Virus genome (UHGV): UHGV-0195737
DNA: 58,116 bases
DNA from: a virus
Reading direction: 5' to 3' (one strand)
Part shown: in pieces, positions 5,953 through 52,575 of the stretch
How the letters are laid out: every line of letters starts with the position of its first letter
Position numbering within the stretch: the first letter of the stretch is position 1
Program-made: the position numbers and the translations under genes
The notes under the pieces: generated by a model
Told to the model about the DNA's origin: nothing
The model's database searches: none
Seen by the model: only the letters and a program-made list of their open reading frames with translations

Positions 5953-5968
5953 TTTGTGATCTATGTTA
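5953..5968. promoter_or_regulatory. CRP-like palindrome upstream of lipoprotein gene
   Basis: TGTGA-N6-TTACA about 100 bp upstream of the 6069 start, next to CCATTTTGT/ACAAAATG inverted repeat. Confidence 0.25.
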
Positions 5969-6068
5969 CATTTCTGGTTTATACAAAATGTGTTTGTTGA
6001 TTTACATCAATGTTGTAAAAATGCGGTTTATGGATACTACAACCAACGAAACAACGGAGGGTAAGACA

Positions 6069-6308
6069 ATGAAAGGTTTAAAAAATATCGCTATCGCTGC
6101 AATGGTTGCTGGTCTGGTTGGTTGTGCTGATATGCCAAAACGTGAATGTACAGCAATCTATCAAACTGGCGGTAATGAATATGCGGTTGCAGTCTTTGGC
6201 GTTGCAGATGTTGGCGGTCACAAAATGGTTAAGGCCGGGTATCCGTTCAATTTCCAATGGGTGAGCGTTGACCACTTCAAGAAAACGGATTGCCCGGAAC
6301 TGAATTAA
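6069..6308 (+). CDS. Small lipoprotein (moron; possible superinfection-exclusion lipoprotein)
   Basis: Start moved to internal ATG with SD GGAGGG; signal peptide with lipobox LVGC; opposite strand to flanking tail genes. Confidence 0.5.
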   Translation: MKGLKNIAIAAMVAGLVGCADMPKRECTAIYQTGGNEYAVAVFGVADVGGHKMVKAGYPFNFQWVSVDHFKKTDCPELN

Positions 6309-36186: not shown

Positions 36187-36373
36187 CGTCACCCCGTTTG
36201 TAAATATGGACTGGCTTAACAGGGATGGCAGGTAACTCGCCGTCGTGTAACGCGCTTGCTATTTTCAAAATTAAATGCGCTTCTGTACCAGTGACTTTCT
36301 TACACCATGCGCCGCCTGTTTTATCTTCGAACAAGATAACAGCGAACTGATCGTTTATTTCCAGCTTATCCAT
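36173..36373 (-). CDS. Hypothetical small protein
   Basis: 66 aa; start overlaps Q stop. Confidence 0.4.
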   Translation of the reverse strand: MDKLEINDQFAVILFEDKTGGAWCKKVTGTEAHLILKIASALHDGELPAIPVKPVHIYKRGDDDEA

Positions 36374-37095
36374 TATTCACCCCGTGTCACTCGCTTGATT
36401 TCGCTTTCCGCGCGGGCTTCCTCTTTGAATAGCTCCGCTATGGCGTCCTCATAGAAAACCCGATATTTTTTCCACCACGTTGATCGGCTTACCGGAAAAA
36501 CAAGCTGATTAACCGCCTGCCGAACAAGATCTACCGGGAAACGTGAGTACCCACGCCCGCCGCAGTGCTGGCACGTTTTGAAAACTGGCATTTCCGCCGC
36601 GTTGCTGGCTGCTTTATCCGGTATCTCGCCGCGCCCTTTGCATTGTTTACAATGGTTGCGAACTTTCCCATGCCCCTTGCATTTTTTGCAAAGGTGTTTT
36701 TCCCCGTAGTCGTCAAACGTAAATTTATATCCGCCGCACTCCATACAAGTTTTTTCCGTAGCGGCGCTTTGGCAATAATCCCTAAACGCGAAAACGGCAA
36801 CAAGAATAATAAGTCCATTGCGCTGATCCTCGTTTAACTCCATGACGTATTCGTAATCTTTTGCCATAGCCCTTAAACGCTCTGTAAGCAATACTACGGC
36901 CTTGTGTTTTTCGGCTTGCGATAGTTCCATCTTCCCTAAAAAAGCGCTATAGCCAAGCTCTACGCGCGATTGCGCCATACCAGCGGCGGTAAGTGCATCC
37001 GTCGTATTAAGCGCATCCGGGGATGTTCCCCGGCTTTCGTCTGACAATCGCGGTGATTTAGGAAAGTGGAATTTTAGAATGGATTCTAAATTCAT
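36373..37095 (-). CDS. Q: Late-gene antiterminator Q
   Basis: N-terminus close to lambda Q as recalled (LESxxKFHxPKSPxxSD, AxGMAQS); CxxCxGxG zinc-finger repeats. Confidence 0.75.
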   Translation of the reverse strand: MNLESILKFHFPKSPRLSDESRGTSPDALNTTDALTAAGMAQSRVELGYSAFLGKMELSQAEKHKAVVLLTERLRAMAKDYEYVMELNEDQRNGLIILVAVFAFRDYCQSAATEKTCMECGGYKFTFDDYGEKHLCKKCKGHGKVRNHCKQCKGRGEIPDKAASNAAEMPVFKTCQHCGGRGYSRFPVDLVRQAVNQLVFPVSRSTWWKKYRVFYEDAIAELFKEEARAESEIKRVTRGE

Positions 37096-37277
37096 TATTT
37101 ACCCCCGTAACGCGCCGCCAGGTGTTTACGGTCAGAAATGGATTGCACCATCTTTCGCTCAAGCTCTTTTAGCGCAAGCAATTCGCGCATATGAAAAGCC
37201 TGGATTTGTCGGATTGTTTCTAAATCATGTTCCTCACGCTGAATATCTATTTGCAGATCTTTAATTTCGTTTTTCAT
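37095..37277 (-). CDS. Hypothetical coiled-coil small protein
   Basis: 60 aa; overlaps Q start. Confidence 0.35.
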   Translation of the reverse strand: MKNEIKDLQIDIQREEHDLETIRQIQAFHMRELLALKELERKMVQSISDRKHLAARYGGK

Positions 37278-37681
37278 TGCTCACCCCACATATTAGTCGC
37301 GTATTCGTCAATATCCGGTAGCAGGTCGCCGCGTTCGCGTACCTTAATAAACAATCGCCCGCCTTTTACCTTCCGGCAGCGTACAATTTTTATTGCGTCG
37401 ATTTGTCCATCATCTTTCCAGAATCCGGCATAAGTAAGGCTATCAAAAAGGCATTTAGGGAGATTATCGAGATCCCTGGTCCGGTTATCCGGCGGCGCGG
37501 CATAAATGGCGATTGCCAGTCGGCAAGATAGGTTAATATTTAAATTCAATAGCTCGATAATGTCTTTTACTTGCTCCCGGTACTCCTTCCCCACTTTGCT
37601 GATATAGTGAAAACCGCGCGAATGCCTGTAATAGCGGTTATTGGATGGCGGGTAAGGCAGGCTAAAAGTATATTCATTCAT
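37274..37681 (-). CDS. rusA: Holliday junction resolvase RusA
   Basis: LPYPPSNNRYYRHSRG and RDLDNL motifs. Confidence 0.8.
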   Translation of the reverse strand: MNEYTFSLPYPPSNNRYYRHSRGFHYISKVGKEYREQVKDIIELLNLNINLSCRLAIAIYAAPPDNRTRDLDNLPKCLFDSLTYAGFWKDDGQIDAIKIVRCRKVKGGRLFIKVRERGDLLPDIDEYATNMWGEQ

Positions 37682-38283
37682 GCTGCCTTTCTCCTTAAGG
37701 CGTCCAATTTCGCCTGATAGATGTTTATTAACTCCTTACATTCTGCGATCGTCCATTTATGCGTATCGTTGTTGTTCTCCAGTGCTACCACCCTAGCGAG
37801 GCCAATTTTTCGAATCAGTGCCGGGCGATACCCTCCTATGTTTCCGTCTAATGTCTGGTTGCAGTGCCTGCATTGTTTATGGCAATTATCCTCGTTAAAG
37901 CGAAGGTGTCCGGCGGCGGCAACCGTTCTGTAGTGGCCTGCATCCCACCCGCATTGCTCACCGTAGTAAGTCCCGCAGGATATACACGGCAACCGCGCAT
38001 CACGTTCGCGGATATAGGCATTGAATACATTTTGAACTTGTTTGATCCAATAACTACGCGGATTTAACTGTTTACGCTTCCGGTTGCGTTCTTCCCGCTG
38101 GCTATCACGGCGTTTCTTCCGTTCCATAGCCTTCATAGCCTTCTCACGGTCGCGGCATAGCTGGTCAAATTTCAATTCTTCCAGGCATTCGTCACTGCAC
38201 CACGTCTGGTTGTGATATTTAGGCTCAAAAAAAACGCCGCAGCACTTGCAACGGCGTCTTATGGGTTTTTTAGGGTTTTGCAT
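37678..38283 (-). CDS. ninG: NinG/Rap-like recombination protein
   Basis: RRRCKCCGxxF start and CISCG, NEDNCHKQCRHCN Cys motifs; start at internal ATG with SD GGGGTGGA. Confidence 0.7.
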   Translation of the reverse strand: MQNPKKPIRRRCKCCGVFFEPKYHNQTWCSDECLEELKFDQLCRDREKAMKAMERKKRRDSQREERNRKRKQLNPRSYWIKQVQNVFNAYIRERDARLPCISCGTYYGEQCGWDAGHYRTVAAAGHLRFNEDNCHKQCRHCNQTLDGNIGGYRPALIRKIGLARVVALENNNDTHKWTIAECKELINIYQAKLDALRRKAA

Positions 38284-38297
38284 AAAGTCCACCCCAA

Positions 38298-38474
38298 TTA
38301 TTTTCGATATTCGATTTCGTTCGGCTTTGCGGCGGCTCCGGCCCTTAGCCAATGATCTACGCATTTGTTGCACTCGTTACAATCTCCTTTGTCGGGGTTA
38401 CATAAATTGCACATTGCCCGCATTACGCATTCGCGCTCGTAGTCGTCATGCCACGCGTACCTATCATCGTTCAT
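38298..38474 (-). CDS. Small Cys-rich protein (putative zinc-binding)
   Basis: 58 aa, not in track; strong SD AAGGAG; CxxC-type cysteines. Confidence 0.4.
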   Translation of the reverse strand: MNDDRYAWHDDYERECVMRAMCNLCNPDKGDCNECNKCVDHWLRAGAAAKPNEIEYRK

Positions 38475-38556
38475 GATTTATTCTCCTTCTGTCAGGTGAT
38501 ATATTTCCGCATTTCAGCGGGGCCAGGTTTTTAAAGAGCATTTCGTTTGATTGCAG

Positions 38557-38635
38557 TATACAAAATGGATACGCCCGGACAAGATGAAAAGCGCCATTAT
38601 GTGACGCTCATCACACAATGACGCCATTTTGTAAA
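38557..38635. promoter_or_regulatory. Intergenic element A with CRP-consensus palindrome
   Basis: TACAAAATGG...TGTGACGCTCATCACA...CCATTTTGTA; ~80% identical to element at 42417-42475. Confidence 0.4.
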
Positions 38636-38637
38636 CA

Positions 38638-39402
38638 TCAATCCGGTAAAACACGGTTAAGCGTAGTGCGAGTGATTGCCCGGTCGTTAGCCAGGAATAC
38701 AGCACGGGCAAAGCCGCGCGGCGTTAGTGAGCGGATCATCTTAGTGCGCTTCGACTTTCCGCCCAACTTCGCGTGCTGCTTACTATCTTCCCATTCATCC
38801 GGCATCGGTACAGGCCGGAATAGCGGCTGTTTAAATCCATTCCCACACCAGATACATGTTTTCTTCGTGTAGGCGTCGCGGTCGGCGATGTATTCCGGGA
38901 AAGCAGGATGTTTATCATCTTCCGGCAGGTAGCCACCGTAAGCGCACGGATTAAAGATAAAATCCGGTTTACGCCATAACGTTGACAGTGCGCCTACCGG
39001 ATTTTCCACCATCCACGGGACGTTATACATACTCGCCAGCATTTCTACTAACTTTGCGTTGTACGCTGCTTTCTGCTGAAAGTAAGGATCTTTCTTCCGC
39101 TTATCAGCAAACCAGCGAGCGCCGGATACCGCGAGATCGTCGCACGGAGGAAAGCCCAGGATAATGTCAGGATCTGGATAAACAGACAATTCAGGGGAGA
39201 ACATTACCAGGAAATGGCTGTCAATCCATACGTTAACGTATTCGATATTCGGATGAATGATTTTTACGCCTTCGTAATCGCCGTGATTAGCGCCGTCATA
39301 GTTGAAGCAATAGCACTTATATCCAGCTTCCGCCCAATCCTTAACGGCGTACCCGCTGCCGTCGTACAGCGACCACACAACCCAATTTCTAAGCCCTTTC
39401 AT
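38638..39402 (-). CDS. Atypical C5-cytosine methyltransferase-like protein
   Basis: C5-MTase-like motifs in order: LYDGSGY (I), GFPPCDD (IV-like, PCD not PCQ), ENPVG (VI-like); only 254 aa, no obvious target-recognition domain. Confidence 0.45.
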   Translation of the reverse strand: MKGLRNWVVWSLYDGSGYAVKDWAEAGYKCYCFNYDGANHGDYEGVKIIHPNIEYVNVWIDSHFLVMFSPELSVYPDPDIILGFPPCDDLAVSGARWFADKRKKDPYFQQKAAYNAKLVEMLASMYNVPWMVENPVGALSTLWRKPDFIFNPCAYGGYLPEDDKHPAFPEYIADRDAYTKKTCIWCGNGFKQPLFRPVPMPDEWEDSKQHAKLGGKSKRTKMIRSLTPRGFARAVFLANDRAITRTTLNRVLPD

Positions 39403-39902
39403 TTCCTGCCCTCAAACGTAAAATAGCGGCGCATGATGATAGTAATCACCGTTACCGCTGCCATTTTTGAGATGAATTGCATAGCTGATATTTCCGGCAT
39501 AAATGCCACAAACGATAGCGTAGGAAAAATTAACGCATCACCAATGGCGGACGCTATATTTGCAGGCCAGCGTTTAGAATCGAAATCACCAGGTAAAACC
39601 CGGTAAACGCCGCCAGAAATAAGCGCACCGGAAACAACCGCGACAAACGACGCGATCGCCACCATTCCGGCGTCGTAATTTATCAGCACCGTGATCGCGC
39701 CAGCTATAGCGCATGTTGTAGCCGACCATTTCAGGCCGCCGTCATATAACAGGAAGTCACGGATCATCATATTGACACACACAGCGGCTACCGTGGTGAC
39801 TGGAATTACCCACGGGCCGCAATGGTTAACAATAAGATTGATGATCACAAAAACGGCGACATAAACGCAGGCTAATAACCTGTCAATTGTCACCCTTTTC
39901 AT
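39399..39902 (-). CDS. Multi-pass inner membrane protein
   Basis: 4-5 predicted TM helices; start at internal ATG with SD GAAGGA. Confidence 0.45.
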   Translation of the reverse strand: MKRVTIDRLLACVYVAVFVIINLIVNHCGPWVIPVTTVAAVCVNMMIRDFLLYDGGLKWSATTCAIAGAITVLINYDAGMVAIASFVAVVSGALISGGVYRVLPGDFDSKRWPANIASAIGDALIFPTLSFVAFMPEISAMQFISKMAAVTVITIIMRRYFTFEGRK

Positions 39903-40374
39903 TTTTATGATCCTTCGGTGAATACAATAAAGCCTCTTTATTAAACCGCCAGCCGTTACCAAGCTGGAGGCTACCATTCATTATTACTTCGCCACTAGCG
40001 ATCAGGTCGCCTGGTATCGAGGTTTTTTTACAGCCGCAATTTAACGGCATATCAAAAACAGCCTGTTTCTTACTTTGTTCTTCCTCCCGATCCGTTAATA
40101 TTTGCTCTGCTTTTAGCGCGTTATAGCTAATCAAATCAATCAACGTGTCTGTCGGATCTGTTCCGTTGCTTAAAATGGCCCCTAAACGCGCTTCTTTGAG
40201 GCAAATCAGTAGATCCCATACATCAAGCGGGGTTAAATCGGCTCCCTTCTTAGCGTTGTAAATAGTGGCTATTTTTGGCGCTGATTTTTCCTCTTTTTTG
40301 TCGTAGCCGTTTTGCTTACCTCTTTGCTCTATGGTTTCCGCTGCGAGTCTTAATAAATCTGCTGCCTTAGTCAT
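39883..40374 (-). CDS. Hypothetical protein
   Basis: 163-aa ORF between membrane protein and Dam genes. Confidence 0.4.
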   Translation of the reverse strand: MTKAADLLRLAAETIEQRGKQNGYDKKEEKSAPKIATIYNAKKGADLTPLDVWDLLICLKEARLGAILSNGTDPTDTLIDLISYNALKAEQILTDREEEQSKKQAVFDMPLNCGCKKTSIPGDLIASGEVIMNGSLQLGNGWRFNKEALLYSPKDHKNEKGDN

Positions 40375-40907
40375 TATTCTGCACCTCTTGCATATAGCTC
40401 TTTACGTGTTATCTGCGTGAAAATACATTCATGCCTGCATCGTGGATGCCAGATCAAGAACAAGCTACCCTTATTGTTCCCGCTCGCTGGCTTACCAGTC
40501 GCAGCATTAATAAACGCCAGCCGCCCGCGCGTGATCAAGCGACATTCGTTTGCCGTTTCCAGGCCGTTCATAAACCAGTTAACAGAAATATCAGCGGGCA
40601 ATAACATTACACATCCGATATGATTTTGATGGTGCTCAAGTGCCGCCTTATCAACGAATGGCCCCGGATTAGAATATGGTGGATTCATCCAGACATACTC
40701 ACCAGGCATCGCCACCGCTCCCCACGGATAATGTAGTGTGTTCATTTCTTCGGTTATATATCGCGGAACTAATGCGTTTGCCTTGTTTGCCGCCACATCG
40801 GCGACGAATTCGAATTCCCGATCCATTCCTCTAAATACGGGCTTCGGCGTTTGCCAGAGATCCTTAATTTCCTTCGGCGTGTGGCTGCCGCCGTAATCAT
40901 TTTTCAT
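40374..40907 (-). CDS. DNA N6-adenine methyltransferase (phage Dam-type)
   Basis: 177 aa; NPPY catalytic motif; size typical of small phage Dam family. Confidence 0.7.
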   Translation of the reverse strand: MKNDYGGSHTPKEIKDLWQTPKPVFRGMDREFEFVADVAANKANALVPRYITEEMNTLHYPWGAVAMPGEYVWMNPPYSNPGPFVDKAALEHHQNHIGCVMLLPADISVNWFMNGLETANECRLITRGRLAFINAATGKPASGNNKGSLFLIWHPRCRHECIFTQITRKELYARGAE

Positions 40908-40916
40908 TATACCCCC

Positions 40917-41150
40917 TTAAAAATAATCCTGTTCCGTCCCCCAGCGGTTGTTTAAATACCCCACCAACCACACAAACCGCTCAATACTGATTAGCGGGGC
41001 GACCTTGCGATAATGCCTATCGAGTATCAGCCGCGTGGCTTTATCGCTATAGCCGTTTCTTTCTACCTCCGCTTTGCAGGCAGAAAGCGCCGCGCGGGCA
41101 GCAGTTTTAACGGCGTTAAATTGCGGCTCTGACAGGTTGAATAAAGCCAT
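40917..41150 (-). CDS. Hypothetical protein
   Basis: Start set at internal ATG with SD GGTGA. Confidence 0.35.
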   Translation of the reverse strand: MALFNLSEPQFNAVKTAARAALSACKAEVERNGYSDKATRLILDRHYRKVAPLISIERFVWLVGYLNNRWGTEQDYF

Positions 41151-41154
41151 ATAA

Positions 41155-41391
41155 TCACCACGGATCATCCCAATCAGGTGCGGCAGCCCAACAAAAACCC
41201 ATGAAAACACTAAAAGCGATTAGCACGCGTACACCAAAAAACAATTCCGCCCACGGTCGAATATCAGGAAGCGACCATGTGATAAACATTGCACCGACAA
41301 TCAAAACAGCAATAATGACAGTGCACCCCAGGAAAACAAAAAGCGCGGCTAAAAGCCACGCCCCCAAGAAATGAAACAGTTCTCTTAACAT
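41155..41391 (-). CDS. Small membrane protein (2 TM)
   Basis: 78 aa, two hydrophobic helices. Confidence 0.4.
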   Translation of the reverse strand: MLRELFHFLGAWLLAALFVFLGCTVIIAVLIVGAMFITWSLPDIRPWAELFFGVRVLIAFSVFMGFCWAAAPDWDDPW

Positions 41392-41595
41392 TTAAACGTC
41401 CTCAATCACCCCGCCTTTCACGCGCTCTTTAATATCCCACACATGAGGCATACACATTTCCTGATAATAGTGATCCGGCCTGCTGCCGAAATACCATTTG
41501 CCATCCATGTAAAAATAAACGCCCGAAAAATTACCAGGTGCGGCCTTTGTTGCTGCTTCTGGAATTTTCCATTCTCTGTAATGTTTAAACCGCAT
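41392..41595 (-). CDS. Hypothetical small protein
   Basis: 67-aa ORF. Confidence 0.4.
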   Translation of the reverse strand: MRFKHYREWKIPEAATKAAPGNFSGVYFYMDGKWYFGSRPDHYYQEMCMPHVWDIKERVKGGVIEDV

Positions 41596-41779
41596 GTAAC
41601 GATACCTCCCGGATAAGTTTGCTCAATTCAACATCTGGTAGCCTGCGAAAATGCTGTACACCATCGACAAAGCGCACGCAATAAACATCGCCTATATTGT
41701 TGTAGTAATAACAGCCACTAAAACCAATCCCGGCTAATTTGGCGTTGTCCGGTAATGTATAGCCACCAACCTTTTTCAT
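41585..41779 (-). CDS. Hypothetical small protein
   Basis: ATG start (track start is GTG). Confidence 0.4.
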   Translation of the reverse strand: MKKVGGYTLPDNAKLAGIGFSGCYYYNNIGDVYCVRFVDGVQHFRRLPDVELSKLIREVSLHAV

Positions 41780-41797
41780 ATTCAGCCTCACAAATAT

Positions 41798-41965
41798 TTT
41801 TCAATCACCCAGCGGAGAAACAAACCGACCATTACGATCCCCCAGCAACAAGCCATAAACATCAATTCAGCGTCCATTGTGTTTTCCTTCTTCCCAGGCG
41901 AAATAACAAACAAAGCCAACCAGGGCGAACAACCAACAACCCAGGATTAAATCAATCAGCCACAT
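41798..41965 (-). other. Two coupled hydrophobic microprotein ORFs (about 29 and 32 aa)
   Basis: MWLIDLILGCWLFALVGFVCYFAW with SD GGAGG; overlapping start of MDAELMFMACCWGIVMVGLFLRW. Confidence 0.3.
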
Positions 41966-41967
41966 AA

Positions 41968-42186
41968 TCACGCCTCCAGTAAGCCATAATCGAATTTTCC
42001 AAGATATTGCTCGATACCAATCATCTCGACACCCTGGACTTCCGCGCCCCATACAGTTACGTGATAAGCGTCCTCCCGCCATTGTTCGTGGCTTAACACT
42101 TCGTTTGCCGGATATTTCCGCCCGGCGACGTAAGCGCCCGGACCTACGCCACCCTCTACGCAATGCAGCATGATTTGGTTTTCCAT
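41968..42186 (-). CDS. Hypothetical protein
   Basis: ATG with SD GGGGTGGA; the overlapping Arg-rich track ORF 41867-42163 is judged spurious. Confidence 0.4.
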   Translation of the reverse strand: MENQIMLHCVEGGVGPGAYVAGRKYPANEVLSHEQWREDAYHVTVWGAEVQGVEMIGIEQYLGKFDYGLLEA

Positions 42187-42196
42187 ATCCACCCCG

Positions 42197-42379
42197 CTAA
42201 TAGCAAACCGCGTACATACAGATCCCGTTGTTGAAGGCTTTGATAATCAGGTCAATGATCATGTAAACGAGCATTACAGCCGCCGCCGGGACCAGAATCG
42301 CGAATAGTCCGCCTAACGTGCGCTCAATGATGAAGTGCGGGTTTAGTTTGCTTTTGTGGTTACGTTCAAAGTTTGTCAT
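42197..42379 (-). CDS. Small membrane protein
   Basis: About 60 aa from internal ATG; one TM helix. Confidence 0.35.
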   Translation of the reverse strand: MTNFERNHKSKLNPHFIIERTLGGLFAILVPAAAVMLVYMIIDLIIKAFNNGICMYAVCY

Positions 42380-42416
42380 TTTCCCGCCCTCCGTTCTGTA
42401 TACCTTTCGATTTAAG

Positions 42417-42475
42417 TTTACAAAACGGATACAGCAGGACAAGACAAAATGTATATTTATGTGATCGCAATCACG
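42417..42475. promoter_or_regulatory. Intergenic element B (homologue of element A)
   Basis: TACAAAACGGATAC...TGTGATCGCAATCACG; near-CRP palindrome. Confidence 0.4.
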
Positions 42476-42478
42476 CTG

Positions 42479-43099
42479 TTAATGAAGTACGCGTTTTTCC
42501 GGCTCATGAATAGGCTGTGCGTTTTTCCGTGCATCATTAAGCACAGCGATAGCCGCCTGTACGCCTAATTCATTAGCTCGCATATCATCGCCAACGAAAT
42601 TTCCGTAAAGCACCGGAATAAACGCCTTAACGTTCACTTCTTCGTGTCCTTCCTCAACAAATTTCTGTAACATCTTAACCTCAAAGATGCCTTTCATCAG
42701 TTCGCGCATACAATGCAGTGAAGCACTACCGAACTGATCCTTACTTAACGGGAAAATAACAGCACTTCCGAACGCGAGCGGATCAACTTCCTCCGGTACT
42801 GGTACGCGTCCGAATTCTTCCTCCATGCGTTTTACAAAAGAAAGGCAGAACACATAACGCGCAATATCTGTTTTTTCTTCCAGGCTTAAATCAACGTAAT
42901 CGCGGATTGATGCATCCATCATAATATCAACAATCTGTAGCGCCAGGTTTAAATCGGCGTCATACGCGCCAGCGTTCATATCTTTTAATACTTCGTGATA
43001 ATCCTTCGTTTCCACTTCATGAAAACTTGCGTCCTCCGCGTAGCGAGTGATTAACATGCCGTCGCTGCCGAGTGAATAAGCTGTTTTGATATTGTTCAT
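42479..43099 (-). CDS. Hypothetical protein (early operon)
   Basis: 206 aa from ATG with SD AAGGA. Confidence 0.45.
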   Translation of the reverse strand: MNNIKTAYSLGSDGMLITRYAEDASFHEVETKDYHEVLKDMNAGAYDADLNLALQIVDIMMDASIRDYVDLSLEEKTDIARYVFCLSFVKRMEEEFGRVPVPEEVDPLAFGSAVIFPLSKDQFGSASLHCMRELMKGIFEVKMLQKFVEEGHEEVNVKAFIPVLYGNFVGDDMRANELGVQAAIAVLNDARKNAQPIHEPEKRVLH

Positions 43100-43110
43100 A
43101 ATATTTATCC

Positions 43111-43443
43111 TTATAGTGGATGATGCCATTTCATTTCAGTTTCTGGATTGAACGGGTTTCCTTCGCTTGAAAGGAATAAATCACGCTCCCGTTTCAGTTC
43201 TTCCGGGCTTATTTCCATTTCGTCAATCTGACCGAACGATCCCGGCATCATTCGTTTTAAATCAGATAGCGGACGCATAAGGCCACAGCCACGTAACAGC
43301 ATATCTACCGCAAATTGTCGCCGCCCGCCAGCATCATTGAAGCGACGCGCCCACGGCACACACACGATCCGGCGTTCGAATTCAATGAATAGAGATAGCT
43401 TGTTTGTGTTAGCGTCATACGCTTTGTGGAATTTAATTTTCAT
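43111..43443 (-). CDS. Hypothetical protein
   Basis: 110-aa ORF. Confidence 0.4.
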   Translation of the reverse strand: MKIKFHKAYDANTNKLSLFIEFERRIVCVPWARRFNDAGGRRQFAVDMLLRGCGLMRPLSDLKRMMPGSFGQIDEMEISPEELKRERDLFLSSEGNPFNPETEMKWHHPL

Positions 43444-43626
43444 TTATAACACCTCGACATATTGTTCAAGATGCCATTGGCCTACCTCGTCGTAATCTTC
43501 ATCGAATATTGTTACCTGACCCCCTGGCCCGAAATAAAAGGCAGTAGCAATAAATTCATATCCCCACCACGCGCGGATCTTCTCACCGCCTTTCAGGTCT
43601 TTAACCTTCACCAATTTTATAGCCAT
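43444..43626 (-). CDS. Hypothetical small protein
   Basis: 60-aa ORF. Confidence 0.35.
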   Translation of the reverse strand: MAIKLVKVKDLKGGEKIRAWWGYEFIATAFYFGPGGQVTIFDEDYDEVGQWHLEQYVEVL

Positions 43627-43889
43627 ACGCCGAACATCCCATTTAGACCAGCGAACAACCGCCGCCAGTGGTTTTCAACATAAGCCCGGAACGGCTTAAC
43701 ACGAACATTGCGGGCCGTTAGTACGATACTATCGAAGTAGCGCGGCTCGATCAGCGTGCCATCTAAATATTGAACAAGTAACGGTCGTTCAAGATCGCTA
43801 CATGTTTTATTCAGCACGACCAGGCCAGGATCACTACGATATGCAGGCAAAACAACGAGATCACCCGCCTTTGCATCCCAAATCATCAT
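43617..43889 (-). CDS. Hypothetical protein
   Basis: First ATG (track start is GTG). Confidence 0.4.
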   Translation of the reverse strand: MMIWDAKAGDLVVLPAYRSDPGLVVLNKTCSDLERPLLVQYLDGTLIEPRYFDSIVLTARNVRVKPFRAYVENHWRRLFAGLNGMFGVWL

Positions 43890-44130
43890 CACATTAACCC
43901 CTTACCAATAAAGCTAATCACCGCCGCCAGTGCGCCGCAAAACACAACCGTAAACAGGAAGCAAATAACGCAAAACGCAACCCTTACAATATCCTTACCG
44001 ACTTTCATAATTGGCCTCACATATTAGTAATCAGTTTGATGATCGCCACCGTGATATAAAGCGAAACACTGAGATACAGCACCGCCACTGCTACCGCCGC
44101 GAGCAATGCGGCAATTTTTGCGAGATTCAT
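43889..44130 (-). other. Two coupled hydrophobic microprotein ORFs (about 37 and 39 aa)
   Basis: MNLAKIAALLAAVAVAVLYLSVSLYITVAIIKLITNM and MKVGKDIVRVAFCVICFLFTVVFCGALAAVISFIGKGLM; ATGA overlap with upstream gene. Confidence 0.3.
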
Positions 44131-44393
44131 TTGCCACCCTCCGCAATGAATTTATCAAGCCATTTATTATTCGCCAGACGTTCGGCGTCTTCGCCAAATG
44201 ATTTACGGTTACTTAATTCCTGGCGAGTAGGGAAAGGCCATTTATCCACCCACCCCGCAGACGTTTCGAATTCATAGTTACCGCCGCCGAAATCAATAAA
44301 GACGTCACTATCATCAAGACTTTCCGCAGTCCTCTGAAAACCTCTGCCGTTATTTTCGCTTAATGTTGTAGCTGTCATGATTCGATACCTCAT
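44127..44393 (-). CDS. Hypothetical protein
   Basis: 88-aa ORF. Confidence 0.4.
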   Translation of the reverse strand: MRYRIMTATTLSENNGRGFQRTAESLDDSDVFIDFGGGNYEFETSAGWVDKWPFPTRQELSNRKSFGEDAERLANNKWLDKFIAEGGK

Positions 44394-44671
44394 TAATCGT
44401 TAATAACCTGGCCCATACGCCCGCGATATTTGCGCATACGTGGATCGACATATTCAGGCCACTGCATATCCGGTTTTCTTTGCAGCGGGTAAAAACTCGC
44501 TTGCCAGTTGTCAAACCAGATTTGCTTTGCGTACAGGTCACTAAATCTTTTCGCCATTCGTTCCGCTGCCGTGCCACATAAAAAAAGCCCCCGATCGATT
44601 TGATCGCGGGCTTCTTTTAATACTTGCTCTTTTGTTCGTGGCGGCGGTGGCGGTTTTAAATAATCACCCAT
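44393..44671 (-). CDS. Hypothetical protein
   Basis: 92-aa ORF; Pro-rich N-terminus. Confidence 0.4.
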   Translation of the reverse strand: MGDYLKPPPPPRTKEQVLKEARDQIDRGLFLCGTAAERMAKRFSDLYAKQIWFDNWQASFYPLQRKPDMQWPEYVDPRMRKYRGRMGQVIND

Positions 44672-44687
44672 CGCTAACCTATTGATT

Positions 44688-45107
44688 CTAAAAAGGAATA
44701 TCGTCGTCGAAGTCCATCGGCGGAGGATTGTTCCCGTTATTATTCTGCTGCTGCGGCGGCGCTTTCTGCTGCTGGCCTTGCTGCTGGCCCTGCTGGTTAA
44801 CGTTCATGAATTCGAATTCACTGACCGCTACTTCTACAGCCGTTCCCTTCGTGCCGTCGTTCCGGTCATATTGCCGAACATCCAGGCGACCGCTTACCAC
44901 TATCTTTCCGCCCTTGCGGATATGCGGCGCTAATTTTTCCGCACGCTCACCAAATACCAGGCAAGTGATCCACATTGTCCGCTTATTATCGCCGTAGCCA
45001 TTCGTTACAGCTAACGAGAAACTACCAATCGCTTTTCCGTTTTGCGTGTAGCGAATTTCCATGTCGTTTCCGATATTTCCGCCCAGCGTGATTGAATTTA
45101 AACTCAT
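44688..45107 (-). CDS. ssb: Single-stranded DNA-binding protein
   Basis: OB-fold-sized N-terminus, Gln/Gly-rich linker, canonical acidic tail DFDDDIPF. Confidence 0.85.
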   Translation of the reverse strand: MSLNSITLGGNIGNDMEIRYTQNGKAIGSFSLAVTNGYGDNKRTMWITCLVFGERAEKLAPHIRKGGKIVVSGRLDVRQYDRNDGTKGTAVEVAVSEFEFMNVNQQGQQQGQQQKAPPQQQNNNGNNPPPMDFDDDIPF

Positions 45108-45748
45108 TAATTAATCTCCCCGTTAAGCTCTTTTAAGCGAATGTCATAAACGTCTTTCGCTTTTTGTTGTTGTTCTGAATCTTTAGGCAGTAGCTTCCAG
45201 CACTTGCCGAAGATCTCGCGCAATTTGTTCGCGTCCGGCGCTTTCGCTGCCGCATCACAGAAACGTGCTAACACTTCATCAGGATTTGGTGGCGCTTTCT
45301 GCTGCTGCGGTTGTTGTTTTGGCGGGTTTTTCTGCTGGCGTGGCTGTTGATTTGTCTGTTTAGCATAAGCATCAGTATCAGCGTCTTTCGCGTCGTCTAT
45401 GCAGAATAAACCGTTCAAGGCATATTTCCGCGCGTAACTTGATGTTGCTCCTGTTAGCTGGCTTGCATCCATACCGCGCTTGTTTTCTTCCTCCCTTGCG
45501 TAAGCAGTTACCGCTATTGCGTCCTCGCCGTCGCTTAATGTCGCAGTGGCTTTAACGTAATAACGCTCACCAATCAGGATAATTTCATCATTCAGCGTTA
45601 GTGTGACATTTTGAAGTAGCGGTTTAACCGCTTCCAGAATATCCTCCGCTGAACGATAGCTATAACCCCCGAAGTTATTACGCTGATTCTTAGGCGCGTT
45701 AAGCGTCTGCTGAATCGTCCACAGTTTCTTGTGTAGCTCTGTTTTCAC
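45107..45748 (-). CDS. erf: Erf-family single-strand annealing protein
   Basis: GGYSYRSAEDI-type ERF signature; Gln/Pro-rich linker; GTG start with SD AAGGAG. Confidence 0.65.
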   Translation of the reverse strand: MKTELHKKLWTIQQTLNAPKNQRNNFGGYSYRSAEDILEAVKPLLQNVTLTLNDEIILIGERYYVKATATLSDGEDAIAVTAYAREEENKRGMDASQLTGATSSYARKYALNGLFCIDDAKDADTDAYAKQTNQQPRQQKNPPKQQPQQQKAPPNPDEVLARFCDAAAKAPDANKLREIFGKCWKLLPKDSEQQQKAKDVYDIRLKELNGEIN

Positions 45749-47405: not shown

Positions 47406-47660
47406 ATGAGTATGCACATGATGAATGAGGCTTGGAAAGTGGAACTTAACAGCCCGATTCAAAAACTTGTCTTAATGGCTCTGGCTGAAAAGGCAGATAA
47501 TCGCCGCCACGCCAGGGTATCACACCAAGAAATCGCAAAAATGTGTGAAATTCCTGTAAGTACGGTGATACTTGCTATCAACGGATTAACACACAAAGGA
47601 TTTATTTGTAACCCTTACCCGGTAAATGACGTTTACCTGGTAATGCTGCCGGAGGAATAG
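47406..47660 (+). CDS. Winged-helix regulatory protein (Cro/CII position)
   Basis: 84 aa; HTH-like segment SHQEIAKMCEIPVSTVILAINGL; first gene of rightward operon. Confidence 0.45.
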   Translation: MSMHMMNEAWKVELNSPIQKLVLMALAEKADNRRHARVSHQEIAKMCEIPVSTVILAINGLTHKGFICNPYPVNDVYLVMLPEE

Positions 47661-47662
47661 AA

Positions 47663-48775
47663 ATGAAGTGGTTTAAGCATGATAGCGATGCGAACCGCGA
47701 TGAAAAACTTCAAAACGTTTTGCTTGATTATGGCCTGGAAGGATACGGGCTTTATTGGTATTGCATCGAGTTAATAGCCTACGAAGTAGATCAACATAAT
47801 CTGACATTCGAACTAAAACACGATGCAAGAATCATTGCCCGGAACGTAGGATCAAGTCCGAAACGTGTAGAAGAAATGATGAGATACTTCATCGAAGTTG
47901 GCTTGTTCGACTGCTCACATGGCGTTGTAAGATGCCTGTCGTTAGCAAAAAGACTTGATCAATCAATGGCTTCGTCAAAAAGCGAATTTAGAGAGGCAAT
48001 TAAAAGGCTAAACGTCAAAAAAAATAAAAAGTTAGATAATCCTTTAGTGGAAGTAAATAATTCACCAGATACAGAAAAAGAAAAACCATGGCACAACCAT
48101 GATGCAGCCATGGCACAACCATGGCACAACCATGGATTAGAAGTAGAAGTAGAAGAAGAAATAGAAACAGAAGAAGAAAAGAAAAATATAAAAAGAAAAG
48201 AAGTCAATCAGGACGGTGACTTTCAGATAAGCGAATCTGCATTGCGTTGCCTGGCTTTCTACAACGAAAAGGCAGGATGCAAATGTCGTGATACTAAGCC
48301 ATTCATCGAACTACTGACAGAAACAAAAACACGTAAGGCATACACGGAGGATGAGATCACATTAGTAATTGAGTGGGCTTTGACGCAATGGCGTAGCCGT
48401 GGTGGAGTGCCTAAGCCTGTTAACATTTGCCGGGTAACTAAGTTTGATGGGTATCTGGCTGATGCTGAACAATGGCGCAAGCTGTCAGCTACTGTAAACG
48501 CTGCCGACGTGGTGGAAGCATTTAACAGCACGTTTGACGGCCTGTTACCACCTGCCGAACTGGATCGGGATATTGAACGTAAGATCCATTCGCTATCTGA
48601 CTACCTGAAAGACAAAAGCGTTGACAGCTTTATTGCTTACTTCCAGAAATTTAAAGCTGATGCGCCGAACTTCTATTTCGGTGAGAATGAAAGCGGCTGG
48701 CTGGCTGATATAGATTTTCTGTTGAAGCCGGAAACGCTCCGCAAGACGCGTAACTTCCAACATATACCATCATGA
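47663..48775 (+). CDS. Replication initiation protein (replisome organiser-like)
   Basis: 370 aa; N-terminal phage replisome-organiser-like region; iterons plus AT-rich tract inside the gene; upstream of DnaB. Confidence 0.6.
   Translation: MKWFKHDSDANRDEKLQNVLLDYGLEGYGLYWYCIELIAYEVDQHNLTFELKHDARIIARNVGSSPKRVEEMMRYFIEVGLFDCSHGVVRCLSLAKRLDQSMASSKSEFREAIKRLNVKKNKKLDNPLVEVNNSPDTEKEKPWHNHDAAMAQPWHNHGLEVEVEEEIETEEEKKNIKRKEVNQDGDFQISESALRCLAFYNEKAGCKCRDTKPFIELLTETKTRKAYTEDEITLVIEWALTQWRSRGGVPKPVNICRVTKFDGYLADAEQWRKLSATVNAADVVEAFNSTFDGLLPPAELDRDIERKIHSLSDYLKDKSVDSFIAYFQKFKADAPNFYFGENESGWLADIDFLLKPETLRKTRNFQHIPS
48086..48200. repeat. Putative origin: iterons plus AT/purine-rich tract
   Basis: CCATGGCACAA x3 plus degenerate copy, then GAAGTAGAAG...AAAAATATAAAAAG. 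Confidence 0.45.
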
Positions 48776-48899
48776 ATTACCAAAAATCCAAAATTACCCA
48801 CAAAACAAGCTCACCAGCGAGCTAAATCGCATTGGGTGCTACACTTGCTTACCTTTTTGCGATTAGCTCGTCAGAGAGCGTTACAGAGAGGATTTTAAA

Positions 48900-49001
48900 A
48901 TGGACGGTAAACACGTTTTCGCCCTGGCTTTTGCCATCGCTGCGGCAATCGCTGTTAACGTCGCCTTGTTCGGCGGTTTGTTCCTTCTAGTCAATCCATA
49001 A
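48900..49001 (+). CDS. Putative hydrophobic microprotein (33 aa)
   Basis: MDGKHVFALAFAIAAAIAVNVALFGGLFLLVNP; SD GAGAGG. Confidence 0.3.
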   Translation: MDGKHVFALAFAIAAAIAVNVALFGGLFLLVNP

Positions 49002-49133
49002 CCTACCTACCAGTCTGTAAATCGAAAATTAGCCACCTGATAGCGTTTCTGACGCAATAAGACACTGCAACCTGTGCAAACGGGTTACGCGGTGGGATTT
49101 TTGCGTTGTAGCGCGTTTTACGGAGAAATTACA

Positions 49134-49904
49134 ATGTCTGAATTAATGGTTTTTGATAACGTTAAAATGAATAGTATTGAAATTTCAGAGTTGGTTGGTA
49201 AGCGTCATGATAACGTAAAACGCACTATCGAGACGCTTGCTAATAATGGGATTATCCGACTTCCTCAAATTGAGGTTTTCGGAAAAATCAATAACTTAGG
49301 ATTGATTCGTGGCGTGGACGCTTACGTTTTTGAAGGGGAGGAAGGCAAGCGAGATAGTATTATTGTGGTCGCACAGCTTTGCCCTGAACTTACGGCGCGG
49401 ATCGTTGACCGCTGGCAGGAACTTGAAAACGCAGTCCGGCAAAATGCTGTTCCAAATTACGGTAACACACAGATCAGTAATGTTCTTGCTTTTGCTGAAA
49501 CGGCGGGCCGAATGCTGAATATGAGTAATTCAGGTAAGTTAGGTATGCTACAGAAGATTGAGAAGGAATATAATATTCCTCCTATCCTTCCGCATTACGC
49601 TATTGACGCTCCTTCTGATGCTGTGGACGGATCAAGCCGCGTGACCAAATCACTGACAGCATTGTTAGAAGAAAATAACGTTGGCATGACTGCGCGTGAA
49701 GTTTACCCAATCCTTGAACGCAAAGGCATTGTCGATCGCAAGTATCGTAAAGCAAAATGCGGAGAAAAAAGATTCTGGAATGTAACTGTGTATGGTCTGC
49801 GATACGGAAAAAATATAACCAACCCATCTAATCAGAGAGAAACACAGCCGCATTTTTATGAATCAAGATTTAAAGAGTTATTGAATATTATTTTTTCTGA
49901 ATGA
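49134..49904 (+). CDS. Rha-family phage regulatory protein
   Basis: N-terminal SELVGKRHDNVKRTIETL matches Rha family signature; SD GGAGAA. Confidence 0.6.
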   Translation: MSELMVFDNVKMNSIEISELVGKRHDNVKRTIETLANNGIIRLPQIEVFGKINNLGLIRGVDAYVFEGEEGKRDSIIVVAQLCPELTARIVDRWQELENAVRQNAVPNYGNTQISNVLAFAETAGRMLNMSNSGKLGMLQKIEKEYNIPPILPHYAIDAPSDAVDGSSRVTKSLTALLEENNVGMTAREVYPILERKGIVDRKYRKAKCGEKRFWNVTVYGLRYGKNITNPSNQRETQPHFYESRFKELLNIIFSE

Positions 49905-49937
49905 GTATACATTCCGTAAACCGGAGGAAATAACGTT

Positions 49938-51056
49938 ATGTCACAGAGAAAGATCAGCGATGAGCAACTGATCGCTGAGTACAACAAGGGGAAGACTTAC
50001 AAGCAAATAGCCGAAGAATATGGAATGGCAAAACGCAACGTCGAACGCCTGGGCGCACGGCTGGCTAAGCGCGGTTTAATATCCACGCGCCGCGCTCCTG
50101 GCTTCGGTGTTAACGGTGAATCATTGCTCGTTGATAAGGATGGCAATGTAATCATGCGCTGGATTAAAACGGCCCGTGACCGTGAGGAAATGGAAAGGCT
50201 AACGCAAGCGGCTTGCGACGCATTCACGGAAGAAATACCACGCGCGGAGGTAGTGCCAGTGCCGGAAATTGATTTCCAAAAAAGCCTGGCCCTTTATCCG
50301 GTATTCGATCTGCATATCGGGGCGCTTGCACATAAAGCTGAATGCGGAGAAAGCTACGACACCGGGATCGCCGAACGCGTGCTAAATGACTTCTTCGACT
50401 ACGCGGTAGGCGCTGCACCAACGTCTGAGAAGGCTGTTTTGCTTCTCGGAGGCGATCTACTTCACTCTGACGGGATGATCCCGGTTACACCGACAAGCGG
50501 GCATATTCTTGATCAGGATAGCCGCTACGCAAAACTTGTTTATGTGGCGATCCGGTCGGTCCGGCGTGCGGTGGGGAAAATGTTGTTAAACCATAAGGAC
50601 GTCGAGATACAAGTGTTATCCGGCAATCACGATCAGTCGGGGATGATCTGGCTACGTGCGGCGCTGGCGGCTTTTTACGAGGATGAACCGCGCGTAACGG
50701 TTGATGTATCACCTGCTATCGTCCACCACACGCAGTACGGTAAAACATTCCTTGCTTATCATCACGGGCACACCATCAAAAAACCCGAAAATTTGTTAGC
50801 TGCCTGTGTTTCTGACTGGCGGGAGGACTTCGGCAAGTCGGCGGCGGTTTACGCTCACACGGGGCATCTGCATCATCAATCTGTCGTAGAAACATCATTA
50901 GGGATCGTTGAGCACCACGGCACGTTAGCGGGTAAAGACGCTTATTCAACGAATGGCGGTTGGCGGTCGCGGCGGCTGGCGGCGGTGATAATTTACAGCC
51001 CGGATTATGGGGAAATCGGGCGCTTTGTTTATTACCCTGAATATTCCATTTTGTAA
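49938..51056 (+). CDS. HTH - metallophosphoesterase fusion protein
   Basis: N-terminal HTH (YKQIAEEYGMAKRNVERL); calcineurin-like phosphoesterase motifs DLH, GGDLLH, GNHD, HHGH, GHLHH. Confidence 0.55.
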   Translation: MSQRKISDEQLIAEYNKGKTYKQIAEEYGMAKRNVERLGARLAKRGLISTRRAPGFGVNGESLLVDKDGNVIMRWIKTARDREEMERLTQAACDAFTEEIPRAEVVPVPEIDFQKSLALYPVFDLHIGALAHKAECGESYDTGIAERVLNDFFDYAVGAAPTSEKAVLLLGGDLLHSDGMIPVTPTSGHILDQDSRYAKLVYVAIRSVRRAVGKMLLNHKDVEIQVLSGNHDQSGMIWLRAALAAFYEDEPRVTVDVSPAIVHHTQYGKTFLAYHHGHTIKKPENLLAACVSDWREDFGKSAAVYAHTGHLHHQSVVETSLGIVEHHGTLAGKDAYSTNGGWRSRRLAAVIIYSPDYGEIGRFVYYPEYSIL

Positions 51057-51074
51057 ACCGGAGGCGACGCCATA

Positions 51075-52496
51075 ATGATAACTGAGCAAGTAAACTCATT
51101 GCGGCAAGAAAGGGAATCGGCGGTTATTGGTGGACTTCTGTTAGGCGGGCTTACCCCTAACGCGCAAGATGTTCTTGCTACACTCGATCCAGAAGTTTTC
51201 ACTATTCCGCTATACAGACGGGCGTTCGAAATTATCCGGGCGCAAGCCAGAAACAGAAATCTCATCGATGCGTTATTGGTTGGCGATGAAATCGGTAACG
51301 AAAACTTCATACCGCTGATGCAAACGGCGCGATCGTGTCCTTCGGCTGCCAACCTGAAAGGGTATGCCGAATTATTGCAGGAAGAACACCAGCGGCGGCA
51401 AATGTTGGACCTGATAGAAGATATTCGCTACAAACTGGAAACGGGTACGCTTGAAGTTGTCAGGGAAACGATGAAAGATTTTGATTCCCGGTATTCAAAA
51501 TTAAAAGTAACGAAAGGCGAAATCCTCCCGGTGCTGTTGCGCGACGCGGTGCAGGAATACACGGAAGTGCTAAGTAAGCGCATGGAATGCGGCGTAAACT
51601 CCGACAACATCAAAACAGGGATTGACCCACTCGACGAAATGTTAGGCGGCATTAACGCCACTGATTTAGTGCTCATCGCCGGACGTCCGGGATCTGGTAA
51701 ATCGGCGTTAGCGTTGGCAATTGCCCGCGCGGCGGCTGAGAGACCTTACCCTGGCGGCGAAGGAAATCGTGTCGGTGTTTTGCTCTTTACGCTTGAAATG
51801 TCGCTCGATCAAATAACTGAGCGGGCCATCGCTGGTGCGGGGAATTTATCAACGGATTGTTTGCGTAATCCGGTAAAACTTGACGATGAGGGGTGGGCGC
51901 ACGTCGCCCAGGGTATGAGCGCCCTCGCCGATCTCGACGTATGGATTGTTGACGCATCGCAGTTAACGGTCGAGGAAATACGCGCCACCACCGAACGTAT
52001 GAAACAGGACCATCCCAACCTGGGAATGGTAATGATTGACTACATCGGGTTAATGAAGCTGGCTAAGGCCGAACGTCATGATCTTGCCGTAGGGCAATTG
52101 TCGCGGTCATTGAAAATGATGGCGAAGGAATTGCGCGTACCAGTGGCGGCGCTGGCGCAATTATCCCGCCGCGTTGAGGAACGACCGAACAAGCGCCCGA
52201 ACAATTCTGATCTGCGTGATTCCGGTAATCTGGAGCAAGATGCGGACCGGATCATCATGGTCTACCGTGATGGCTACTACAACGAACAATCTGTTGCCCG
52301 CGAATATATGGAGATCATCGTTTCAAAAAACCGTCACGGGAAAACGGGCACTGTTTACCAGCGGTTTGACGACAACGGCAATATCTTACCATGTGACCAG
52401 GCCCGCGCGGCGTCCGCTTGCATCCAGTCAATGCAACAACGTCCGGCGGCAAGCCGATTCTCCCCACGAAACAACCAGAATAACTCATCCTTTTAA
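51075..52496 (+). CDS. dnaB: Replicative DNA helicase (DnaB family)
   Basis: Walker A GRPGSGKS, Walker B LGMVMIDY; 473 aa. Confidence 0.85.
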   Translation: MITEQVNSLRQERESAVIGGLLLGGLTPNAQDVLATLDPEVFTIPLYRRAFEIIRAQARNRNLIDALLVGDEIGNENFIPLMQTARSCPSAANLKGYAELLQEEHQRRQMLDLIEDIRYKLETGTLEVVRETMKDFDSRYSKLKVTKGEILPVLLRDAVQEYTEVLSKRMECGVNSDNIKTGIDPLDEMLGGINATDLVLIAGRPGSGKSALALAIARAAAERPYPGGEGNRVGVLLFTLEMSLDQITERAIAGAGNLSTDCLRNPVKLDDEGWAHVAQGMSALADLDVWIVDASQLTVEEIRATTERMKQDHPNLGMVMIDYIGLMKLAKAERHDLAVGQLSRSLKMMAKELRVPVAALAQLSRRVEERPNKRPNNSDLRDSGNLEQDADRIIMVYRDGYYNEQSVAREYMEIIVSKNRHGKTGTVYQRFDDNGNILPCDQARAASACIQSMQQRPAASRFSPRNNQNNSSF

Positions 52497-52575
52497 TTAA
52501 CTTGAGTAAACGGCTTACCGGAAAGCTGACCGCTTTCTGGTGGCTGTTTTCGCGCTTAAATCGAGGCTAAAAACA

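Follow-up and report, generated by a model that had tools for sequence, protein, structure and literature searches.

The gene at 49,938..51,056 on the (+) strand of the 58,116-nt viral sequence UHGV-0195737 (hereafter, the window, i.e., the whole stretch of DNA analyzed) starts with ATG and encodes a 372-aa protein in which an N-terminal HTH is fused to a metallophosphoesterase (MPP) domain. Judged by its sequence, this fusion belongs, as an unremarkable member, to PHROG 704, a very large family specific to phages, and represents no new architecture. As far as can be predicted, the protein looks like a phosphodiesterase of the calcineurin-like superfamily with a binuclear metal site that is competent for catalysis, and it may well serve phage DNA replication or recombination as a DNA-directed nuclease tethered by its HTH. 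The initial annotation had described the gene as a candidate nuclease or phosphatase, which is a fair description; the metal-ligand set is intact. The same annotation had not recognized the architecture, which proved to be already catalogued as PHROG 704 and present in approximately 2,000 sequenced phages.

With thousands of clusters, PHROG 704 is among the larger phage families that have a clear enzymatic signature; all T1-like loci that we examined contained a member, and the selection acting on the family matches in strength that on the replicative helicase. Since mEp phages as well as T1 and TLS grow on E. coli K-12, its function is directly testable. The weight of the finding lies in the size of the family and the tractability of E. 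coli phages, with little coming from the window locus alone.

Membership in PHROG 704 and domain layout

The protein matched phrog_704 (labeled "DNA repair exonuclease") with an E-value of 2.4e-140 and a score of 469 bits, with residues 4–368 aligned to positions 2–387 of the 390-position profile. The closest sequenced proteins in the homolog search were at 93% identity (coliphage mEp013 gp11), and orthologs of the gene have been deposited for mEp013, mEp021, MagusPhagus, and dozens of E. coli prophages. In addition, one IMG/VR contig (L094) encodes O-like, Rha, MPP, and DnaB proteins identical to those of the window. On a wider scale, tblastn detected a homolog in 2,042 out of 50,697 phage records (near full length in 1,957), mainly from phages of Escherichia, Klebsiella, Salmonella, and Vibrio; the phage groups with a homolog include T1-like Drexlerviridae, Jerseyvirus, Kagunavirus, and chi-like Casjensviridae. 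A HMMER search of 1.84 billion representatives retrieved 4,457 clusters (at 50% identity) with an E-value of ≤1e-3 and 969 with an E-value of ≤1e-30, and most proteins among the 150 matches listed were 370–440 aa in length. Specifically, mEp013 gp11, mEp021 gp11, TLS gp66, and the "putative phosphoesterase" proteins of T1-like and Jersey-like phages share the HTH + MPP architecture of the protein described here as well as its invariant residues, and they are of comparable length (~370–385 aa). Nothing essential differs between the window protein and other PHROG 704 members, and its pairing with DnaB is found only in the mEpimmI lineage. Thus, nothing is new in the architecture, and the window gene is, by its profile match, a further PHROG 704 member.

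Members of the family appear in databases under the names hypothetical protein, putative phosphoesterase, metallophosphoesterase, winged-HTH protein, oxidoreductase, Rrf2 regulator, transcriptional regulator, DNA polymerase II small subunit, and DNA repair exonuclease. The current PHROG 704 labels (including "DNA repair exonuclease," "proof-reading exonuclease," "oxidoreductase," and "transcriptional regulator") are transferred guesses. For example, the TLS genome paper named gp66, which is encoded directly upstream of the holin gp67, a "proof-reading exonuclease" (PMC11447400). Judged by gene order, TLS gp66 is a PHROG 704 member, as the family member of contig L035, presumably TLS itself, occupies this place upstream of the holin; the function given in the TLS paper is an annotation. 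Our literature search for PHROG 704 members returned genome descriptions and no functional paper.

In the AlphaFold2 model (mean pLDDT of 80, with >90 in the core), the protein begins with a predicted three-helix HTH at residues 8–44 (49,959..50,069 on the [+] strand; pLDDT of 85–90), which is followed by a β-hairpin (residues 60–77) and a linker helix (residues 79–97). The MPP catalytic domain occupies residues 114–365 (50,277..51,032 on the [+] strand) and hosts motifs I to V, namely, D124xH126, G172D173, G229N230H231D232, H276, and G309H310xH312. An HTH with a complete calcineurin-like motif set had been reported initially between Rha and DnaB, and we located all of the quoted motifs in this ORF: DLH corresponds to D124/H126, GGDLLH to G172, D173, and H176, GNHD to residues 229–232, HHGH to H275–H278, and GHLHH to residues 309–313. 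Alignment of 36 homologs (39–92% identity) revealed 50 invariant columns, which include all of the metal ligands; D124, H126, G172, D173, H176, G229, N230, H231, D232, H276, G309, H310, and H312 are all invariant. Hence, the loss of metal-ligand residues on careful alignment, a result that would have counted against the initial interpretation, was not seen. Moreover, each invariant MPP ligand position stands at the end of a predicted β-strand, which matches the expectation for an MPP active site, and the PHROG 704 protein displays the β-sandwich MPP fold in its model.

Curated domain models added little to this assignment. For the HTH, Pfam yielded sub-threshold matches to HTH_28, Sigma70_r4_2, and Rrf2 (E-values of 0.015–0.03), NCBIfam matches were similarly weak, and some homologs carry precomputed PF08281 or PF13384 HTH matches. 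No Metallophos model in Pfam or NCBIfam matched the 372-aa protein at an E-value of <0.1, and a precomputed PF12850 match was present in one homolog; the MPP assignment therefore rests on the motifs and the predicted fold. Searches of PDB sequences by phmmer and hmmsearch, for which the protein itself or the family profile served as the query, gave no MPP match, and the family profile returned only marginal HTH matches to the LuxR-type proteins DevR and ComA. We consider the MPP fold secure on the basis of the model. As for the class of the enzyme, i.e., a Mre11/SbcD-like nuclease versus a phosphatase, the MPP part of the assignment stood, while the nuclease subclass is favored only slightly within the superfamily and lacks links at the sequence level.

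Both the HTH-MPP gene and the dnaB gene are under strong purifying selection. Compared with 10 relatives (dS of ~0.65), the MPP gene showed a dN/dS of ~0.06, with the N-terminal and catalytic parts alike, which is similar to the value for DnaB (dN/dS of 0.04 at a dS of ~0.65).

The mEpimmI replication block and its leader motif

The region is 84–87% identical at the DNA level to mEp013, mEp010, mEp021, mEp044, mEp515, mEp554, and MagusPhagus, which identifies the window, by sequence similarity, as a prophage of the mEp021/mEpimmI group. Phages of the mEpimmI group are Nus-dependent non-lambdoid temperate coliphages (PMC11893012). The prophage carries a cI repressor and an integrase and is temperate, with the MPP gene lying in the early rightward operon. 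Matches to the query region 49,000–51,200 were found in 36 of the 5,426 complete E. coli genomes, and in 35 of these, the match had 84–89% DNA identity and extended into an annotated replicative DNA helicase gene. Two ORFs of exactly 1,325 aa each are unrelated to each other.

The gene order in mEp013 is cI, HTH, O-like, variable gene, HTH-MPP (gp11), DnaB, NinB, and integrase, and the stretch from the O-like gene through the variable gene and MPP to DnaB is identical in mEp013 and the window. The replication initiator pair (47,406..48,775 on the [+] strand) consists of an HTH_36 protein and a Lin1244_N/O-like protein identified by Pfam and PHROG, with the latter (47,663–48,775) showing Lin1244_N, O-like, and weak DnaD-like loader matches. 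The variable gene upstream of the MPP gene is of the Rha family (49,134..49,904 on the [+] strand). The ORF lister starts it at GTG 49,074, but homology begins at ATG 49,134, the likely true start, which gives a length of 256 aa as annotated in E. coli relatives. In relatives, the slot between the initiator and the MPP gene contains Rha, KilAC, BRO, zinc-ribbon, or DUF559 genes or is empty, indicating that this interval is a swappable moron site.

Downstream, the DnaB-family replicative helicase gene (51,075..52,496 on the [+] strand; DnaB_C E-value of 1e-76) is followed directly at its 3′ side by a 12-bp terminator-like hairpin (52,515..52,543 on the [+] strand). A scan of the (+) strand for promoters and terminators from the MPP gene to the end of dnaB detected no internal signals. 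The two genes share a GC content of 52% (GC3 of 55%), as compared to 42%, 41.5%, and 36.5% for the flanking O-like, Rha, and MarR-like genes, respectively. As 18 nt separate them and the ribosome-binding region of dnaB encompasses the stop codon of the MPP gene, the two genes are co-transcribed and probably linked in translation. The MPP gene was positioned upstream of DnaB in all close IMG/VR loci found with DnaB (43 out of 43), in the mEp013 and mEp021 isolates, and in the five E. coli prophages inspected; thus, in mEpimmI phages, the MPP-DnaB pair is a coherent, fixed two-gene block. In mEp021, an HNH gene is inserted between the two. We rejected the HNH endonuclease as an obligate partner of the MPP protein, because it occurs sporadically among phages (upstream, downstream, or elsewhere) and is therefore a mobile homing endonuclease.

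The two genes also share a leader motif. The initial annotation had noted a near-identical, Shine-Dalgarno (SD)-containing motif before both genes, and we found an exact 12-mer, GTAAACCGGAGG, at both places on the (+) strand: the first copy (49,916..49,927) contains the SD of the MPP gene, and the second (51,053..51,064) contains the MPP stop codon TAA (51,054–51,056) together with the dnaB SD. The 12-mer occurs exactly twice in the window (at 49,916 and 51,053), each time 10 nt before an ATG, while shuffled sequences with ≤1 mismatch allowed gave a mean of 0.19 matches, with 1 out of 100 shuffles reaching two. The likeness between the leaders spans ~40 nt (TGAAT..T.C.A...GTAAAC..GAGG, then 9–10 nt and ATG).

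Comparison of 27 genomes of the mEpimmI group revealed that the dnaB leader reads TTTTGTAAAC-(CG/AT/AG)-GAGG in 26 of them and differs by one base in the remaining relative, L060 (TTATGTAAACCGGAGG / TTATGTAAAC). Within this leader, TTG-TAA constitutes the end of the MPP coding sequence (final sense codon plus stop), and the distance from the motif to the ATG is variable. Among the same 27 relatives, at least 10 variants of the MPP leader were present, with GTAAACCGGAGG in seven and GTAAACATGAGG in six; the others include GTAAACCAGAGG, GTAAACATAAGG, GTGAACCGGAGG, GCGAACCGGGGG, GTATACCGGAGG, and GTTAACTGGAGG, and GTTATTCGTGAGG replaces GTAAAC-NN-GAGG in the MPP leaders of three relatives. The motif is not shared by T1-like homologs, and some Jersey-like and Kagunavirus-like homologs have a loosely similar leader, TAAACACGAGGAAGTAA. 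Neither leader matched an Rfam family at an E-value of ≤1, and both folded no better as RNA than their shuffles (z-scores of −0.57 and +0.97); on these grounds, a riboregulator or operator hairpin was rejected.

The proposal that the shared motif co-regulates the two genes is thus not borne out, given that its dnaB copy holds the MPP stop codon, its MPP copy varies, and neither an Rfam family nor structure was detected. We read the motif as a strong SD context and perhaps as a sequence that is conserved at gene junctions and serves modular recombination; dnaB is probably coupled in translation to the MPP gene. The presence of both genes in one operon with an 18-nt gap explains their co-expression, and no special operator is needed.

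Candidate functions of the HTH-MPP protein

We infer a nucleic acid substrate and a role in phage DNA replication or recombination for the PHROG 704 protein. In the proposed mechanism, the HTH would serve to place the protein on DNA, while cleavage of phosphodiester bonds at DNA ends or in structured DNA would fall to the MPP domain, in a mode like that of SbcD/Mre11 or the PolD-DP1 exonuclease and without a Rad50/SbcC partner; this activity would serve replication or recombination of the phage DNA. DNA-metabolism genes are neighbors in three separate lineages, i.e., mEpimmI (DnaB), ST44-like, and T1-like phages. Specifically, the gene order is DUF3987, hypothetical, MPP, primase, SNF2 helicase, DUF3799, and Erf in Salmonella phage ST44 (74% identity) and SNF2 helicase, VRR-NUC, Dam, small ORFs, MPP, holin, and endolysin in T1-like phages (54–68% identity), where SNF2 helicase, VRR-NUC, and Dam share an operon with the MPP gene. 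The window prophage has Erf, SSB, NinG, and RusA in the left operon and NinB in the right operon, and no recognized exonuclease was found among the ten left-operon proteins scanned. RecE-type exonucleases are already present in T1-like and ST44-like phages, so the MPP protein is not simply a partner of Erf. The MPP gene adjoins lysis genes in three lineages, which a role in DNA metabolism does not explain. At the sequence level, we found no link of the protein to any solved MPP, to SbcD, or to T5 A1, which speaks against a nuclease.

A less probable alternative is that the protein is a small-molecule phosphodiesterase or phosphatase acting on cyclic or linear nucleotides, with a role in metabolism or anti-defence; possible substrates are of the cAMP type or the Ap4A type or are the immune second messengers of CBASS, Pycsar, and type III CRISPR. 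The fold matches to MJ0936, YfcE, COG0622, Rv0805, and SapH (an Ap4A hydrolase) are about as strong as those to nucleases, the GNHD motif also occurs in class III cyclic-nucleotide phosphodiesterases, and conservation of the gene extends to many virulent phages. However, a conserved N-terminal HTH (dN/dS of 0.06) would be odd for a soluble nucleotide hydrolase, and the genomic neighbors are DNA-metabolism genes. Furthermore, the known anti-signaling enzymes Acb1 and Apyc1 have other folds, and we found no paper tying PHROG 704 to anti-defence. The role in defence that had been suggested for the gene was dropped, as none of the PADLOC defence models matched the protein (0 families at an E-value of ≤0.01).

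It is quite unlikely that the protein degrades the host chromosome in a manner analogous to T5 A1. This phage T5 protein, a predicted MPP, is required, and by itself suffices, for the degradation of host DNA (bioRxiv 10.64898/2026.04.02.716235), and several of its homologs have N-terminal HTH matches in Pfam, so that the architecture recurs; PHROG 704 is also core in virulent T1-like phages. In the window, however, the gene belongs to an early operon and the phage is temperate, so that early destruction of the host chromosome would not fit with lysogeny, and its homology to T5 A1 was not significant (confined to motif III; see below).

A DNA-binding transcription regulator, in which the MPP would be a sensor or accessory module, e.g., for late or lysis genes, appears about equally improbable. 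The HTH resembles the sigma-70 region 4, LuxR, and Rrf2 types, although every HTH match fell under the curated thresholds, and some database entries bear the name "transcriptional regulator." In T1-like phages, the gene directly precedes the holin-endolysin cassette, and in Vibrio and Rhodobacter phages it adjoins lysis genes, following them in the Rhodobacter chi-like phage. In mEpimmI phages, on the other hand, it forms part of the replication block, a long way from the lysis genes, and the invariant metal ligands argue for catalysis.

The initial annotation had assigned the gene to the position usually held by a helicase loader or primase, and a loader or accessory factor of DnaB, catalytic or not, is the most improbable of these alternatives. 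It would account for the strict adjacency of the MPP gene and dnaB throughout the mEpimmI group, for their common GC content that is distinct from the flanks, and for the short gap with the stop codon within the dnaB ribosome-binding site. Nevertheless, all DnaB-linked loci belong to one closely related lineage and therefore count as a single observation: DnaB adjoins the MPP gene only in loci with ≥88% identity, it was absent within 5 kb in all 58 IMG/VR loci at 40–68% identity, and it is not a neighbor in annotated T1-like, Jersey-like, Vibrio, Rhodobacter, or ST44-like phages, whose homologs are 40–74% identical. Homologs in chi-like phages likewise have no DnaB nearby, and in Jerseyvirus and Vibrio phages an HNH endonuclease gene comes after the MPP gene. 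The protein showed no Pfam, PHROG, or NCBIfam match to loader families (DnaC/IstB AAA+, lambda P, or DnaD/DnaB-Bsu type), so that clear homology to a characterized loader, which would have overturned the initial interpretation, was not encountered. In addition, the upstream initiator is already O-like with weak DnaD-like loader matches, the slot between it and the MPP gene is variable, and the HNH insertion between both genes leaves mEp021 unbroken. With no DnaB outside mEpimmI, no loader match, and a swappable slot, the argument from position is weak, and a function as helicase loader is unlikely.

A more specific version, which we consider similarly far-fetched, is that the HTH-MPP protein of mEpimmI phages is a dedicated DnaB partner, i.e., a site-directed nuclease or end-processing enzyme that aids helicase loading. 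If so, the enzyme would create or maintain a single-stranded entry site or restart collapsed forks for a helicase without a DnaC- or P-type loader, and this nuclease-assisted helicase loading would give the linkage, base composition, and stop/ribosome-binding site overlap the meaning of stoichiometric co-production.

Comparison with known metallophosphoesterase systems

As a candidate DNA-directed nuclease, the HTH-MPP protein differs from SbcD/Mre11 in several respects. While SbcD/Mre11 has a capping domain, the protein described here has none and ends at the MPP core; and whereas the SbcC/Rad50 ATPase is encoded adjacent to SbcD/Mre11, the neighbors here are Rha and DnaB. No SMC-like or SbcC/Rad50-type gene flanks the locus or was found in the annotated related loci inspected, and the N-terminal HTH would take the role that the capping domain and partner have in SbcD/Mre11. 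A permissive hhalign comparison of the family profile with E. coli SbcD placed motifs I, II, III, and V collinearly, yet with a probability of 0.8%, i.e., without significant homology. The PolD small subunit DP1, a 3′-5′ proofreading exonuclease, has an OB fold that the protein described here lacks, and the two share 11–14% identity; neither a PolD large subunit nor a phage polymerase was found among the genes examined around the locus. An MPP superfamily enzyme is also encoded in the lambdoid right operon, namely, the lambda Ser/Thr phosphatase NinI (PPP family).

Phage T5 A1, a pre-early predicted metallophosphatase, provides, by analogy, the best experimental precedent for a DNA-directed role. 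T5 A1 matched phrog_1745 only, and hhalign of the 36-sequence profile with a 27-sequence A1 profile aligned just 25 columns around motif III with a probability of 7%, leading us to reject homology. T5 A1 also differs in its length of 556 aa, its virulent phage, and its host-shutoff role. On these profile comparisons, it is an analog and no relative of the protein described here. Nonetheless, the two are alike in being phage MPPs without a Rad50 partner, and some A1 relatives have an N-terminal HTH, indicating that the HTH + MPP theme recurs independently in the relatives of T5 A1.

Composition and downstream end of the MPP-DnaB block

The HTH-metallophosphoesterase (MPP) gene and the adjoining DnaB-family helicase gene together (49938-52496) form a GC-rich island, with 52% GC and a GC3 of 55%, whereas GC content is lower in the flanking O-like initiator (42%), Rha (41.5%) and MarR-like (36.5%) genes. 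This difference suggests that the MPP-DnaB pair has a history of its own as one unit. The stop codon of dnaB is directly followed on the (+) strand by a 12-bp hairpin and then a T-rich tract (52515-52543); this element overlaps the GTG start called for the following ORF (52540). It could act as a partial terminator or attenuator where the replication block finishes.

Variation upstream of, within and downstream of the MPP gene

The slot between the O-like initiator and MPP genes (48776-49937; equivalents in related loci L001 and L006-L011) is replaceable, in that it holds Rha, a KilAC antirepressor, BRO, a zinc-ribbon protein or DUF559, or is empty, in otherwise collinear relatives. The variable part extends to about the upstream gene's stop codon and leaves ~30 nt up to the MPP ATG. 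For the Rha gene that occupies the slot here, the mechanical ORF call places the start at a GTG at 49074 and so includes 49074-49133; judging by homology and by the length given in annotations of relatives, the probable start is the ATG at 49134 (256 aa).

The MPP gene itself also appears to be mosaic. In P0090, the homologue from an E. coli prophage variant (L138-L140), the first 100 N-terminal residues are near-identical to those of the protein encoded at 49938-51056, but the catalytic domain is divergent and lowers overall identity to 60%, which implies recombination at the HTH/MPP domain boundary. The P0090 gene is followed by an HNH gene. More generally, some relatives (L006 [mEp021, at 5916-6453], L022, L025, L122, L126, L127 and L138-L140) have an HNH_3 endonuclease gene separating MPP from dnaB. 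The mEp021-type copies (L006 and L022) retain, directly before dnaB, a leftover of the original MPP 3′ end, ..TTTACCCTGAAT(T/A)TTCCATTTTGTAAACCGGAGG, and the inserted gene resembles a homing-endonuclease cassette. Jerseyvirus, Vibrio phages and TLS likewise have a related HNH gene beside MPP, although its position is not constant.

Nearest relatives and other regions of the window

The O-like, Rha, MPP and DnaB proteins are 100% identical to those of the metagenomic viral contig IMGVR_UViG_3300045988_076772 (54,578 bp); IMG/VR thus already contains what is essentially this phage. Among complete E. coli genomes, none matches 49000-51200 at >89% DNA identity; the host may thus belong to another strain or to a related species.

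The leftward early operon (36373-45748, [−] strand) encodes an Erf-type annealase, SSB, two DNA methyltransferases, NinG/Rap and RusA, together with two conserved proteins of unassigned function (phrog_34371 and phrog_1515); no recognisable exonuclease and no Gam/Abc-type RecBCD inhibitor were found among the ten proteins of this operon that were scanned. Two tail-region ORFs on the (−) strand (1932-5909 and 7266-11243), 1.3 kb apart and each exactly 1325 aa, were rejected as paralogues, their alignment being confined to low-complexity Ala/Thr-rich stretches.

HTH domains among T5 A1 relatives

For several homologues of the predicted metallophosphatase T5 A1 (P0463, P0465-P0467, P0469, P0493 and P0505), the precomputed Pfam hits include an N-terminal HTH (HTH_23, HTH_38, HTH_7 and HTH_31). 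The combination of HTH and MPP domains therefore appears to have two or more separate origins in phages.
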